From Candidatus Hadarchaeum sp. (lineage in GTDB: Archaea > Hadarchaeota > Hadarchaeia > Hadarchaeales > Hadarchaeaceae), in assembly GCF_049969415.1 (NCBI RefSeq), contig NZ_JBMFOX010000003.1:8960-72959 (forward strand): a stretch of 64,000 nucleotides of DNA, given 5' to 3'. Numbering within the stretch: position 1 is the first letter of the stretch; each line of letters opens with the position of its first letter. Below, piece by piece: positions 8,191 to 49,083 of this stretch. Below the pieces are notes generated by a model. The model was not told where the DNA came from. It made no database searches and worked only from the letters and a program-made list of their open reading frames with translations. A program made the translations under genes and the position numbers.

Positions 8191-9108
8191 ATGTTCATTC
8201 CGAGGGATGTGGTTTTGGAGCTGGAGAAGGCGGGCTATCGATTTGTGGGCCGGCACCGCCATGCAGCGGTGAAAGTCTGCCACTGGACGAGAAAAAGCCT
8301 GCTGAATCGGGGCAGCTGCTACAAGCAGAAGTTCTACGGAATCCAAAGCCACCGCTGCCTGCAGTTGGCGCCCGGCCTGCCCCTCTGCGATCATAGGTGC
8401 ATCTTCTGCTGGCGCAACATCGAGATAACCAACCCGCGCTGGGAAGGTGAAACTGACGATCCGGCCGAGATTCTGGAGGAGGCCATTGCTGCCCAGCGGC
8501 TGCTCCTCAGCGGATTCGGAGGAAATCCTGAGGTTGATAAAAAAAAGTTCCGGGAGGCGCTGGCACCAAATCACTGTGCTATTTCCCTAGCTGGGGAGCC
8601 CACGCTGTATCCTAAGATCAACGGATTGATTGAGGAGTGTCGGAGGCGCGGGATGACCAGTTTTCTGGTGAGCAATGGGCAGCATCCCGAGGTGCTGGAA
8701 CGCTTGGTGGAGCCGACCCAGCTCTACATCTCCCTGGTGGCGCCAGACCCGGAGAGCTATCAGCGGATCTGCCGCCCCGTGCGGAGCGATGGCTGGGAAA
8801 GGCTCAGGCGGAGCTTGGAAATCTTGGCCTCGTTCAGCTGTCGCAAGGTAATCCGGCTGACGCTGGTCAAGGGCCTGAATTTCAGGGATCCTCAGGCCTA
8901 CGCGAGGATGGTTGAAGACACTGAAGCCGATTTCATTGAGGTCAAGGCCTACATGTGTGTGGGCTATTCCCGGAGCCGGCTCGGTCTGGAGAACATGCCG
9001 CTCCATTCGGAAATAGTTGATTTTGCACGGGCGGTTGCAGAGGCCACCGGTTACCGGGTTTCTGACGAGGCGGAGCTCAGCCGCGTGGTCCTCCTCAGCA
9101 GACGCTAG
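8191..9108 (+). CDS. taw1: 4-demethylwyosine synthase Taw1 (radical SAM)
   Basis: VKVCHWT, CYKQKFYGIQSHRCLQ, CDHRCIFCWR, AISLAGEPT. Confidence 0.95.
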   Translation: MFIPRDVVLELEKAGYRFVGRHRHAAVKVCHWTRKSLLNRGSCYKQKFYGIQSHRCLQLAPGLPLCDHRCIFCWRNIEITNPRWEGETDDPAEILEEAIAAQRLLLSGFGGNPEVDKKKFREALAPNHCAISLAGEPTLYPKINGLIEECRRRGMTSFLVSNGQHPEVLERLVEPTQLYISLVAPDPESYQRICRPVRSDGWERLRRSLEILASFSCRKVIRLTLVKGLNFRDPQAYARMVEDTEADFIEVKAYMCVGYSRSRLGLENMPLHSEIVDFARAVAEATGYRVSDEAELSRVVLLSRR

Positions 9109-17575: not shown

Positions 17576-17687
17576 TGGCGGGCCCGGTGGGATTCGAACC
17601 CACGACCGATCGGTTAGCTCCCAATCGACCGTTAAGAGCCGATTGCTTTTGGCCGGAAACCCGACTGCCAGACTGAGCCACGGGCCC
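17576..17687 (-). tRNA. tRNA-Lys(CTT) with two introns (22/23: 17648-17664; 37/38: 17615-17632)
   Basis: Spliced: GGGCCCG TG GCTC AGTCTGGCA GAGC A ATCGG CTCTTAA CCGAT CGGTC GTGGG TTCGAAT CCCAC CGGGCCC G CCA; first intron has a clean BHB (TGGC/GCCA), second a relaxed motif. Confidence 0.92.
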
Positions 17688-46481: not shown

Positions 46482-46757
46482 TTGGTGGGATACGTGACGC
46501 TGGCCGTGACCAAGACCTCCATCAAGGGGCAATTGGTAATCCCGAAGGAGATAAGGCGGGAACTCGGGATAAAAGAGGGCCAGTTGATGCTGGTTTACGC
46601 CGCCGGCGACAGGATCATCTTGAAAAAGGTGGAAGCTCCAGAGCCGGGTCTGTTTTCAATGCTGGCCGAGCCCATTAGGGCAAAAGCCAGAGAACGGAGA
46701 GTTACCCGAAAGGATGTCGAGCGCGCGATCAGAGAGATTCGTGGGCATGCGGAATGA
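46482..46757 (+). CDS. AbrB/MazE-family antitoxin (VapB-type)
   Basis: KGQLVIPKEIRRELGIKEG; overlaps the downstream PIN gene. Confidence 0.9.
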   Translation: MVGYVTLAVTKTSIKGQLVIPKEIRRELGIKEGQLMLVYAAGDRIILKKVEAPEPGLFSMLAEPIRAKARERRVTRKDVERAIREIRGHAE

Positions 46758-47167
46758 AGCCTGTGATAGTGGTAGCCGACACGAACGTCCTCGTTTCCTC
46801 ATTGCTTTGGGAAGGAAACGAATCAAAAATCGTGGAGTTAGCGGAAATAGGAAAGATAAAGCTACTCACATCAGCTGCACTTCTGGACGAGCTAAAAAAA
46901 GTTTTGATGTACGAGAGGTTTGGCTTGGACGAAAAGACGGTTGATGATAGTGTCAAATACATTTTGACTATCTCCGACATCATCTCGCCAAAGCGCAGTG
47001 TCAGGGTAATCCATGAAGATCCGGCCGATAATGAGGTGCTGGGGTGCGCCTTGGAGGGAAAGGCAAGGTACATCGTTTCTGGTGACAAGCATCTGCCGCG
47101 ATTGAAGGAATTTGGGAGAATCAAGATAGTACGCGCCAAGGAACTTCTAAACATCCTCAAGATTTAA
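46754..47167 (+). CDS. PIN-domain toxin (VapC-type)
   Basis: VVADTNVLVS, EL..VL, DPADN..L..A, YIVSGDKHL. Confidence 0.92.
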   Translation: MKPVIVVADTNVLVSSLLWEGNESKIVELAEIGKIKLLTSAALLDELKKVLMYERFGLDEKTVDDSVKYILTISDIISPKRSVRVIHEDPADNEVLGCALEGKARYIVSGDKHLPRLKEFGRIKIVRAKELLNILKI

Positions 47168-47429
47168 CCGTGCCAAATCCCCATGCATCGCGTGGGTTGC
47201 ACTGCGCTGCCCAACATCCTCGCTTTGCTGGGGCAGAGTATGGTTTGATTTCTATCTCATTTTGTCGGTTTAATTTTTCGCGATGGCGATGGTAGGGCAA
47301 CAACCGGCGTTTTGAGGGATATAAACCTAGATGGAAATTCAAACCGTGCTCAAAAATCGATCCTTGTCAATAGGCCTCCTTTGACAGAAATCCGCCGGTA
47401 TCTTCCTCATTCGGTTCAGTGAAAAAAGG

Positions 47430-47599
47430 TGCGGGGGGAGGGATTTGAACCCTCAACATTCGGATATCAGACCTAGGAGTCTTCAGTTTTGCCCCTTGAG
47501 AGCTGTCCCCCAAGGTCCGACACTATTGAGCCAGGTTTTACCTGGTCTCCCATTTCAATCCGGTGGCGGCTTTCCACCAGATGGTTGAGTTACCCCCGC
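47430..47599 (-). tRNA. tRNA-Phe(GAA) with four introns (D-loop: 47553-47582; 22/23: 47525-47546; 30/31: 47488-47516; 37/38: 47466-47480)
   Basis: Spliced 74 nt: GCGGGGG TA ACTC AACCTGGGA GAGT G TCGGA CTGAAGA TCCGA ATGTT GAGGG TTCAAAT CCCTC CCCCCGC A; each intron has an inner hairpin and BHB-type junctions. Confidence 0.9.
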
Positions 47600-47736
47600 A
47601 CCTTCAAATTCTCTGTAGTTTGAAGTTAAAAAATGCTACCCCACCGCTAGATGTGCGGATGCTCCACGACCAGATAAAACCGGCAGAGTTCGATAAAGGA
47701 TACGGATTATAAGACCGGGCGCGATAACCTAAGCTG

Positions 47737-49083
47737 ATGGCGATGACCGGCTACCGGGGTGAGGTGCAGAGAATTTTGCGCGCGGCGTCGGTGAAGGTGG
47801 GCGACAAGATCAAGGCGGTGAGCCGCGGCCGCACCTATGTCGGCGTCCTGATGCCCCGCACCGAGCTGGGCGATCCCGATCATCTGGTCCTCAAGCTGGA
47901 CAACGGCTACAACATCGGGGTGAAGGTCGGCCGGAGCACCAAGGTGGCCTTGCTCGAGAGCCGGGAACTGCCGAAGCTGGCGGTGCCCAAACCCGCGGTA
48001 GTTCCGGACGCGAGCAAGCCTCGGGTAACGATAGTCGGCACCGGGGGAACCATTGCAAGTCGGGTCGATTACCGCACCGGAGCGGTCTATCCCGCGTTCA
48101 CCGCCGAGGACATCTACAACGCGGTTCCGGAGATAGCTGAGATTGCCAACGTCAAGGTGGTCCAGGCCTGCAACGTCTTCAGCGAGCACATGATCCCGGA
48201 GCTTTGGGCGAAGGTAGCCCGGATTGTGGCCAAGGAGATCAACGACGGGGCCACGGGAGTCGTGGTGGCCCATGGCACCGATACCATGGGGTACACCGCC
48301 GCCGCGCTGAGCTTCATGCTTCAGGGATTGTTTCGCCCCGTGGTTCTGGTCGGGTCGCAGAGGTCCTCCGACCGGCCGAGCAGCGACGCCGCCCTGAACC
48401 TGATTTCAGCGGTCGCGGTCGCCGCCAAATCGGACATCGCCGAGGTGACCGTGGTCATGCACGGGTCAACCGAGGATGATCATTGTCTGATCCACCGGGG
48501 AACCAAGGTTCGGAAGTGCCACACCAGTCGCCGGGATGCCTTTCAGAGCATCAATGATATCCCTTTGGGCATGGTCAGAGAGGGCCAGATCGTGATGTTC
48601 CGCGATGACTACCGCCGCGCTGGTTCCGCGGGCCGGGTCAGGGTGCAGGACAGGCTGGAGAAGAGGGTGGCCTTGGTGAAGACTACACCGGGATTGCCCG
48701 CAAGTGTCATCAAGGGCATCATCGCTTCTGGCGACCGCGGAATTGTCCTTGAGGGCACGGGGCTGGGCCACGTCCCCCAGACCCTGTTTGAGGGCATTGA
48801 ACTGGCCCAGAGAAGGAAGATCCCAGTGGTGATGACATCGCAGTGCCTCTGGGGCAGGGTCGACATGAACGTTTACTCCACGGGCCGTGAACTGCTCCAG
48901 CTCGGCGTCATTCCTGCGGAGGACATGCTTCCTGAGGTGGCTTGGGTGAAGCTGATGTGGGTGCTGGGCAGGACTAGAGATCTGGAAAGGGTTGCCAGGT
49001 TGATGCGGCAGAACCTGGCCGGGGAGATAACGCCGCGAACCCGACCCGATGCTTTTCTTAAACCTCTCTTCACGCCCGGATAG
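47737..49083 (+). CDS. gatD: Glu-tRNA(Gln) amidotransferase subunit D
   Basis: KLDNGYNIG, TGGTIASRVDYRTGAV, HGTDTM, SQRSSDRPSSD. Confidence 0.97.
   Translation: MAMTGYRGEVQRILRAASVKVGDKIKAVSRGRTYVGVLMPRTELGDPDHLVLKLDNGYNIGVKVGRSTKVALLESRELPKLAVPKPAVVPDASKPRVTIVGTGGTIASRVDYRTGAVYPAFTAEDIYNAVPEIAEIANVKVVQACNVFSEHMIPELWAKVARIVAKEINDGATGVVVAHGTDTMGYTAAALSFMLQGLFRPVVLVGSQRSSDRPSSDAALNLISAVAVAAKSDIAEVTVVMHGSTEDDHCLIHRGTKVRKCHTSRRDAFQSINDIPLGMVREGQIVMFRDDYRRAGSAGRVRVQDRLEKRVALVKTTPGLPASVIKGIIASGDRGIVLEGTGLGHVPQTLFEGIELAQRRKIPVVMTSQCLWGRVDMNVYSTGRELLQLGVIPAEDMLPEVAWVKLMWVLGRTRDLERVARLMRQNLAGEITPRTRPDAFLKPLFTPG

Follow-up and report, generated by a model that had tools for sequence, protein, structure and literature searches.

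How can a tRNA gene that is broken into five pieces still give rise to a normal tRNA, and which proteins might join these pieces? This question is raised by a 170-nt locus of a Hadarchaeota genome, found on the minus strand at positions 47599..47430 of the window (the whole stretch of 64,000 nucleotides analyzed here, taken from contig NZ_JBMFOX010000003.1 of Candidatus Hadarchaeum sp.). An earlier note, made from the letters of this DNA alone, had claimed that the locus collapses to a perfect 74-nt tRNA-Phe(GAA) after removal of 30, 22, 29 and 15 nt, and that the removed segments are four introns of the bulge-helix-bulge (BHB) type which leave micro-exons of 6, 8 and 7 nt between them. We divided the minus strand into segments of 17/30/6/22/8/29/7/15/36 nt and joined the five odd-numbered pieces. 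The 74-nt product was recognized by ARAGORN as tRNA-Phe(GAA) with all stems completely paired, and the cloverleaf was also its minimum free energy (MFE) structure in RNAfold (-30.8 kcal/mol), so that both the collapse and the series of micro-exons were reproduced and removal of the introns gives a canonical tRNA. Taken together with the comparative evidence, it is very probable that this locus is a functional tRNA-Phe(GAA) gene, the sole one found in the genome, and that its four BHB introns are removed, likely by EndA and RtcB. The source organism is a genus-level relative of Candidatus Hadarchaeum.

The interruptions could be recognized in relatives by means that do not depend on BHB motifs. 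A BLAST search of the locus against 60 relatives gave full-length matches in four same-genus species (95-97% identity) and in other genera (70-76%), as well as partial matches in further relatives. The 74-nt product was aligned to each locus by a spliced-alignment routine that is ignorant of BHB motifs, and insertions were found at the identical four sites in every relative carrying them. In the five four-intron genes of the same genus the exons are identical (74/74) and the introns differ. The spliced product is also identical (74/74) to an uninterrupted tRNA-Phe gene of a relative belonging to another genus (locus L016 of genome G024), which scores 69.6 bits against the Rfam tRNA model RF00005 (gathering score 29). 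In addition, one genome of each prokaryotic species was searched with a degenerate pattern that covers introns 1 and 2 and the exon between them, and 74 stretches matched; all 11 archaeal ones were labelled Hadarchaeota, Hadesarchaea, Candidatus Hadarchaeum or Hodarchaeaceae, and the remaining matches were chance occurrences in bacteria. The same four introns are present in Candidatus Hadarchaeum yellowstonense YNP_45. Because all archaeal pattern matches carry Hadarchaeota-type labels, the lineage in question is Hadarchaeota and not Thermoproteales.

The splice sites were examined in the register of published classifiers, which consists of 4 exon nt, a bulge of 2 exon nt and 1 intron nt, the hairpin, 4 intron nt, and a bulge of 2 intron nt and 1 exon nt. 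This register was picked among shifts of up to 4 nt in either direction and is hence partly fitted. The four central helices named in the earlier note fell into it, three of them with all four pairs. In what follows, hyphens within bulges mark the splice site. Intron 1 has the central helix TCAA/TTGA (4/4), the bulges CC-A and AA-T, an inner hairpin of 8 bp and an outer helix of 1 bp; intron 2 has TGGG/CTCA (4/4), AG-A and AT-A, an inner hairpin of 6 bp and no outer pair (0 bp); intron 3 has TGTC/GGCA (4/4), GG-A and AA-A, an inner hairpin of 9 bp and an outer helix of 2-3 bp. The central helix of intron 4, CTGA/TCTG, has three of four pairs, with the bulges AG-A and AT-A and an inner hairpin of 2 bp. 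Its outer helix amounts to 1 bp in the full precursor, and, as read from the sequence, the 5-bp anticodon stem becomes usable for this purpose only once intron 3 is gone. Thus, two opposed 3-nt bulges with the splice site after the second nucleotide were found at all four introns. The strict hBHBh' form, on which the 'narrow' alpha4 and alpha'2 EndAs act and in which the 3' bulge is flanked by an exon-exon outer helix of at least 2 bp, was absent from introns 1 and 2, and these two represent relaxed HBh' motifs because their outer helices have only 1 and 0 bp.

Random genomic intervals (2,000,000) served to estimate how often such motifs arise by chance. All four central pairs together with an inner helix of 6 bp or more were seen at a rate of 7.3e-5, a level reached by each of introns 1-3. 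The motif of intron 4 is weak when taken alone, as at least three of four central pairs and an inner helix of at least 2 bp are found in 2.4% of random intervals; this intron is supported by its canonical 37/38 position and by its presence in 30 of the 49 orthologues resolved in the survey described below. The random-interval rate, the insertion sites given by the motif-free alignment and the 74/74 agreement with an intronless gene together exclude a chance origin of the four introns.

The helices are also maintained by compensatory substitutions in relatives. Among distinct orthologues, 11/11 retain the central helix of intron 1, 7-8/8 that of intron 2 and 18/18 that of intron 3. The fourth central pair in intron 1 is A-T in six and G-C in five of 11 distinct sequences, and in intron 3 all four positions are paired in each of the 18 sequences, with the third pair varying among T-G, T-A and C-G. 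Intron 2 shows changes at inner pair 1 (C-G/T-A), inner pair 3 (A-T/G-C) and central pair 3 (G-T/G-C). When nine sequences were given to RNAalifold with no structure supplied, the succession of central helix, 3-nt gap and inner helix was recovered for introns 1 and 2; compensatory changes on both sides were carried by 17 of the 50 predicted pairs, and three unpaired columns appeared at the 5' bulges of these two introns, independent of the register that we had chosen.

The exons are arranged with the same regularity. Exon 2, whose sequence is unchanged in 11/11 orthologues having introns 1 and 2, is the exact exon footprint of the next BHB (4 helix nt and 2 bulge nt), and exon 4 (7 nt) equals this minimum footprint plus the bulge nucleotide of the preceding site. 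The micro-exons are therefore near the smallest size that a BHB motif permits. Outside the gene, an A/T-rich element is found upstream at a roughly constant distance in 21/21 orthologues examined, whatever their intron count (by visual reading of the listing), and may represent the promoter of tRNA-Phe. The 3' CCA is encoded by 18 of 21 orthologous genes; the window genome, with CC followed by six T residues, and two other genomes deviate, and this oligo-T run is likely an archaeal terminator. A scan for sigma-70 promoters and intrinsic terminators, which is not made for archaea, gave nothing.

The expectation that scanners would miss the unspliced gene held for both ARAGORN and the Rfam tRNA model. 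ARAGORN did not call the unspliced locus, a tRNA-His being its sole call in the window, and the Rfam scan of the window at gathering scores reported the tRNA-His and the interrupted tRNA at 17579-17687 only. At E<=10, Rfam recognized in the locus the T-arm alone (14.1 bits) and two chance plastid motifs. We also looked for another tRNA-Phe gene in the whole genome (1.47 Mb in 138 contigs, 95.25% complete, 2.09% contamination), as the earlier note had suggested. None was found by ARAGORN with introns allowed, among the 48 RF00005 matches at E<=1, among 47 contiguous matches to the GAA anticodon arm (none in a tRNA context, flanks being judged by reading), or by a solver for cloverleaf plus BHB structures across 56+4 candidate spans. 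One pattern match on contig C65 was rejected because it belongs to a tRNA-Ser(GGA) of bacterial type, of which the contig end holds the 3' part with its encoded CCA.

The solver is free to remove as many as five BHB-like intervals and requires an intact T-arm and acceptor stem. It gave 23 solutions for the tRNA-Phe locus, among which the four-intron one ranked first, with the top score of all genome spans. It could be argued that the locus is a decaying pseudogene and that its cloverleaf is a coincidence of such flexible fitting, since the solver, when allowed up to five deletions, also yields spurious 'tRNAs' with low scores in long random spans (spans 47-54, scores -16 to +6). We consider this highly improbable in view of the exons that stay identical among five species in which the introns differ, the compensatory changes in the helices, the conserved promoter-like box, the failure of all searches to find another tRNA-Phe, and the identity of the product with an intronless orthologue.

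Several observations weigh against a functional gene with four BHB introns. Thermodynamic support for the exact BHB registers was sought by folding and was not obtained: the four-BHB structure has -59.6 kcal/mol compared with -75.2 kcal/mol for the MFE structure. Pair probabilities of the central helices in the exact register, predicted at 37 and 70 C for the full precursor and for every partly spliced intermediate, were low, H1 and H3 reaching no more than 0.37 and H2 and H4 only about 0.0-0.04. Introns 1 and 2 have almost no outer helix (0-1 bp). The central helix of intron 4 lacks one of its four pairs here, and this fourth pair forms in just 6/15 distinct orthologues. As the genome is a metagenome-assembled genome (MAG) in 138 contigs, a gap may hide a second tRNA-Phe gene, and ARAGORN, RF00005 and the solver did not find tRNA-Tyr and tRNA-Gln in it either. 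The EndA of this organism has neither the crenarchaeal specific loop (CSL), showing a 9-residue gap opposite K44/R46 of the A. pernix alpha subunit (3p1z_B), nor the 5-residue insert found before the catalytic His in ARMAN-2 EndA. The classical rule predicts strict specificity for an enzyme of this kind.

With regard to folding, the inner hairpins of introns 1 and 2 were highly probable in the predictions. In intron 2 the MFE structure prefers a shifted register over the BHB register; a T-to-C change in relatives strengthens the BHB register and breaks the shifted one, which favours the former. With regard to completeness, the genes for tRNA-Tyr and tRNA-Gln may fall into gaps of the assembly or may, like tRNA-Phe, be hidden by heavy interruption. 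Considering that these two are missing and that the solver demands an intact T-arm and acceptor stem, additional heavily interrupted tRNA genes may stay hidden.

We further examined the splicing machinery. The genome has one PF01974 match, located in a 179-aa open reading frame (ORF) with PF02778 and PF01974; this is a single subunit of about 180 aa with no second EndA-like gene, and the enzyme appears to be of the M. jannaschii-like alpha4 type. Compared with M. jannaschii EndA (1a79) it has two extra residues only, and the alignment brings the catalytic Tyr, His and Lys of both enzymes together. EndA matches were found in 59 of 66 genomes of the phylum, mostly as a single copy, and in 26/26 high-quality genomes. 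RtcB is also encoded in the genome (594.6 bits). Features of broad-specificity EndAs, namely the CSL insert of (alpha-beta)2 enzymes or the three-unit epsilon architecture of epsilon2 enzymes with their ASL, were not found in this protein (179 aa, compared with 395 aa for 4fz2_A). At the site of the CSL and ASL loops, as defined in PMC3241643 and PMC3488258, it exceeds the M. jannaschii enzyme by 2 residues and can be aligned to the ASL segment of ARMAN-2 with no gap. A motif, YGKPL(S/T/A)GG(K/R), is conserved in 30/30 family members at any tRNA-Phe intron count, and this loop could supply a recognition lysine and widen the specificity. No EndA differences were found between species with no and with four introns, the loop regions being the same in 30/30 genomes. 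The ORF following EndA is a PF00579 class I synthetase (Trp/Tyr); as it starts immediately after the end of EndA, the two genes are probably in one operon.

Based on these data, we propose that a precursor of about 170 nt would be transcribed, from which the four introns would be excised at approximately Sprinzl positions 17/17a, 22/23, 30/31 and 37/38, with EndA cutting and RtcB rejoining the ends to form a standard 74-nt tRNA-Phe. The single 179-aa EndA of the alpha4 type would cut all eight sites and would recognize introns 1 and 2 as relaxed HBh' motifs. The motif of intron 4 would be complete only after intron 3 has been removed, and splicing should therefore be at least partly ordered.

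An alternative is that the alpha4-type EndA is insufficient and that the HBh' sites of introns 1 and 2 need an extra factor, which may be a chaperone, an unrecognized second subunit of the nuclease, or a modification enzyme acting to remodel the precursor. The missing CSL insert and missing insert before the catalytic His, the outer helices of 0-1 bp in these introns and the thermodynamically disfavoured BHB registers would all fit such a factor, as would the report that wild-type A. fulgidus EndA barely cleaved a D-loop BHB intron in vitro (PMC3241643). However, the genome has a single PF01974 match and most EndA-bearing genomes of the phylum are single-copy, the conserved YGKPL(S/T/A)GG(K/R) loop could itself provide the recognition lysine, and Kaneta et al. 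(2018; PMC5829648) tie Hadesarchaea alpha4 EndAs to increased tRNA disruption. We regard the requirement for an extra factor as rather unlikely.

As for how EndA alone might manage the four introns, we tentatively suggest, as one possibility, that this strict-looking alpha4 enzyme processes a head-to-tail chain of four minimal BHB units by cooperative and partly ordered recognition. In such a chain, the downstream central helix would stack behind the upstream 3' bulge and thereby replace the missing exon-exon outer helix, and the exon footprint of each unit would comprise 4 helix nt and 2 bulge nt, to which the bulge nucleotide of the previous site may be added.

To investigate the distribution of these introns, we surveyed 66 genomes of the phylum with a pattern running from the anticodon loop to the T-arm, adding upstream DNA where needed, and resolved 49 tRNA-Phe genes. 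Four introns were present in eight genomes of the genera g1 (five genomes), g2, g3 and g12, all of family f1. Three introns (sites 1, 2 and 3) were found in two genomes, and two introns occurred either at sites 1 and 2 (two genomes, one in family f2) or at sites 3 and 4 (22 genomes of families f1 and f5). A single intron (site 2) was present in two genomes of family f4, and 13 genomes had no intron. Two further genomes have intron 4 and an unresolved upstream part. No genome in the survey had more than four introns in tRNA-Phe. Intron content varies even within genera: g1 includes five genomes with four introns, one with sites 3 and 4 and one with none; g2 one with four introns and two with sites 3 and 4; g9 two with sites 1, 2 and 3, two with sites 3 and 4 and one with none; and g12 one with four introns and one with none.

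In the window the gene is adjoined by the divergently transcribed gatD (GatD_N and asparaginase domains). The same neighbour adjoins tRNA-Phe in genomes with four, three, two and no introns, including two- and zero-intron species of one genus, and the conservation of gatD indicates that these tRNA-Phe loci are orthologues rather than paralogues. Every intron site is used in at least two families, where the intron ends resemble each other, and syntenic relatives carry zero, one, two, three or four introns, from which we infer that the introns are old and have been repeatedly lost. The tRNA-Phe introns would thus be ancient in the order. When each intron with its flanks was searched by blastn-short against its own genome, only the locus itself was found (best other match, E=0.12), and neither intron families nor transposition are indicated in the genome.

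The distribution also bears on whether the inserts are an artefact of assembly or binning. The genome is a fragmented MAG of 138 contigs with 2.09% contamination and contigs bearing bacterial-type tRNAs, which would make such an error conceivable. But the same architecture is present in eight genomes of four genera and in independently deposited named records, and the locus lies beside the archaeal gatD inside a contig that measures 73 kb or more, the window reaching to C3:72959. The probability of an artefact is negligible in our opinion.

The coordinates of all features are given in Table 1.

Table 1. Coordinates of the interrupted tRNA-Phe(GAA) gene, its surroundings and other interrupted tRNA genes. 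Plain positions refer to the window; G000 is the handle of the window genome.
Feature	Position (strand)	Size and content
Exon 1	47583..47599 (-)	17 nt; acceptor 5' strand, U8-A9, D-stem 5' strand, D-loop nt 1-4
Intron 1	47553..47582 (-)	30 nt; D-loop, linear 17/18, ~Sprinzl 17/17a
Exon 2	47547..47552 (-)	6 nt, TGGGAG; G18 G19 D-loop region and D-stem 3' strand nt 1
Intron 2	47525..47546 (-)	22 nt; D-stem 3' strand, linear 23/24, Sprinzl 22/23
Exon 3	47517..47524 (-)	8 nt; remaining D-stem 3' strand, nt 26, anticodon-stem 27-30
Intron 3	47488..47516 (-)	29 nt; anticodon-stem 5' strand, linear 31/32, Sprinzl 30/31
Exon 4	47481..47487 (-)	7 nt, ACTGAAG; position 31 and anticodon-loop 32-37, including GAA and G37
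Intron 4	47466..47480 (-)	15 nt; canonical 37/38 site
Exon 5	47430..47465 (-)	36 nt; position 38, anticodon-stem 3' strand, variable loop, T-arm, acceptor 3' strand, discriminator A
TATA-like A/T-rich box	47626..47634 (-)	ATTTTTTAA; -35..-27 from the tRNA 5' end
CC followed by T6	47422..47429 (-)	CCA incompletely encoded
gatD	47737-49083 (+)	GatD_N and asparaginase domains
PIN-domain protein	46754-47167 (+)	
Wyosine_form (PF08608)	~8920-9102 (+) = G000:C3:17879-18061	within a 323-aa ORF
tRNA-Lys(CUU)	17579-17687 (-) = G000:C3:26538-26646	RF00005, 44.9 bits
tRNA-Pro(CGG), L185	G000:C12:20510-20628 (+)	
tRNA-Trp(CCA), L182	G000:C18:4353-4505 (-)	
tRNA-Asn(GUU), L183	G000:C31:113-273 (-)	
tRNA-Met(CAU), L184	G000:C1:23232-23351 (+)	
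EndA and following synthetase ORF	L105:1246-2889 (G000:C9)	EndA ends at L105:1785; next ORF from 1786

On the side opposite to gatD, a PIN-domain protein is a neighbour of tRNA-Phe. The earlier note had pointed out that Taw1, which acts on G37 of tRNA-Phe, is in the same window. An ORF with the Wyosine_form domain is indeed present and probably encodes this enzyme, but it is located 38 kb away, so that no linkage between Taw1 and tRNA-Phe is implied and we read their occurrence in one window as a coincidence.

Other tRNA genes of the genome are interrupted as well. The solver-resolved ones mostly have 0-2 introns, and tRNA-Phe alone has more. In the solver results, the Sprinzl 30/31 site is used by introns of tRNA-Arg(UCU), tRNA-Arg(UCG) and tRNA-Met besides tRNA-Phe. 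The second interrupted tRNA of the window is a tRNA-Lys(CUU) which, compared with intron-poorer relatives, has two introns, one of about 17 nt in the D-arm and one of about 18 nt in or near the anticodon loop; it was mislabelled as Arg(ccg) by ARAGORN and given the anticodon GCT in the top solution of the solver. In tRNA-Pro(CGG), apparently two introns flank a 4-nt micro-exon, CGGG, that holds the anticodon, and removal of the first intron is needed before the second can form its BHB. Introns of about 46-60 nt at or near 37/38 are present in tRNA-Trp(CCA), tRNA-Asn(GUU) and tRNA-Met(CAU), the first two of which additionally carry a D-arm intron. These long introns contain box C/D-like motifs (GATGA ... 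CTGA) by eye; in Rfam they yield no more than a weak match of the Trp intron to the C/D-box RNA sR3 (13.8 bits, E 0.78). Finally, the short contigs C50, C65, C69, C74 and C136 carry repeated tRNA-Ile(GAU)/tRNA-Ala(UGC) pairs and tRNA-Ser with encoded CCA. These tRNAs have a bacterial appearance (rRNA-operon spacer tRNAs), and some contigs of the bin are therefore contaminants.

Previous studies have given a maximum of three introns per archaeal tRNA gene (Fujishima and Kanai, 2014, PMC4033280; tRNAscan-SE 2.0 paper, PMC8450103). For Asgard archaea, a bioRxiv preprint of October 2026 (10.64898/2026.10.13.758758) gives a mean of 2.2 intervening sequences per gene in three families and a maximum of five in one gene, about 30% of them being missed by tRNAscan-SE; in three Asgard genomes, 92-95% of tRNA genes were reported to bear introns (Valentin-Alvarado et al., 2024, PMC11291895). 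The suggestion that four introns are at or beyond the described maximum thus holds when compared with the reviews and the tRNAscan-SE 2.0 paper and fails when compared with the Asgard preprint: four introns exceed the older maximum and are below the five of Asgard archaea, and are a record only with respect to the literature before 2026. In the same phylum, Kaneta et al. (2018, PMC5829648) predicted the tRNAs of one Hadesarchaea MAG (YNP_N21) and noted an alpha4 EndA together with marked tRNA gene disruption. This is a different MAG, and the available text of that paper contains neither a per-gene intron count nor tRNA-Phe. It ascribes an 'L3 loop' to Hadesarchaea EndA, whereas the enzyme studied here has no insertion in its C-terminal half relative to M. 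jannaschii EndA. No published four-intron tRNA of Hadarchaeota or Hadesarchaea was found in full-text searches, although supplements may hold per-gene counts.

Multi-intron BHB tRNA genes are already known, and the category is not new. Like those of the Thermoproteales (Pyrobaculum, Thermofilum, Caldivirga), the Hadarchaeota gene has several small BHB introns at canonical and non-canonical sites (D-arm, anticodon stem) and relaxed motifs (HBh'/hBH), and such genes escape simple scanners. Thermoproteales differ in their maximum of three introns (PMC4033280, PMC8450103), in an (alpha-beta)2 EndA that has the crenarchaeal specific loop, compared with one alpha4-like subunit without the loop, and in reported intron transposition (PMC4033280), no intron copies being present elsewhere in the Hadarchaeota genome. 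With Asgard archaea the gene shares many introns, often in the D-arm, BHB-compatible boundaries, presence/absence polymorphism among relatives and the failure of standard annotation. On the other hand, repeated gains are inferred in the text of the Asgard preprint, while the spread over four families in Hadarchaeota more closely resembles old introns with repeated losses; and, in comparison with the Asgard average of 2.2, the other resolved tRNA genes of the genome, with 0-2 introns each, leave tRNA-Phe as an outlier. Ectopic multiple BHB-like introns also occur in nuclear tRNAs of Cyanidioschyzon merolae, for which ordered removal was observed by RT-PCR and whose tRNA-Phe(GAA) is interrupted once in the D-stem and once at 37/38 (PMC3728597). 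However, C. merolae is a eukaryote (a red alga), with at most three introns and with some permuted genes.

The tRNA-Phe gene of this organism is a comparatively validated four-intron tRNA gene outside Asgard archaea. Hadarchaeota MAGs annotated by ARAGORN or Rfam, including those that have long been public, would miss their tRNA-Phe, which could be misread as incompleteness. The combination of an alpha4-like EndA, considered to be of narrow specificity, with relaxed motifs bears on the rule that enzyme architecture limits intron sites, and the micro-exons of 6-8 nt show how densely BHB units can pack. Since relatives hold every intermediate at one locus, the system is tractable for studying the gain and loss of tRNA introns. 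The locus would provide a natural allelic series of zero to four introns with polymorphism within genera, in which losses or gains could be dated and the mechanism could be tested.

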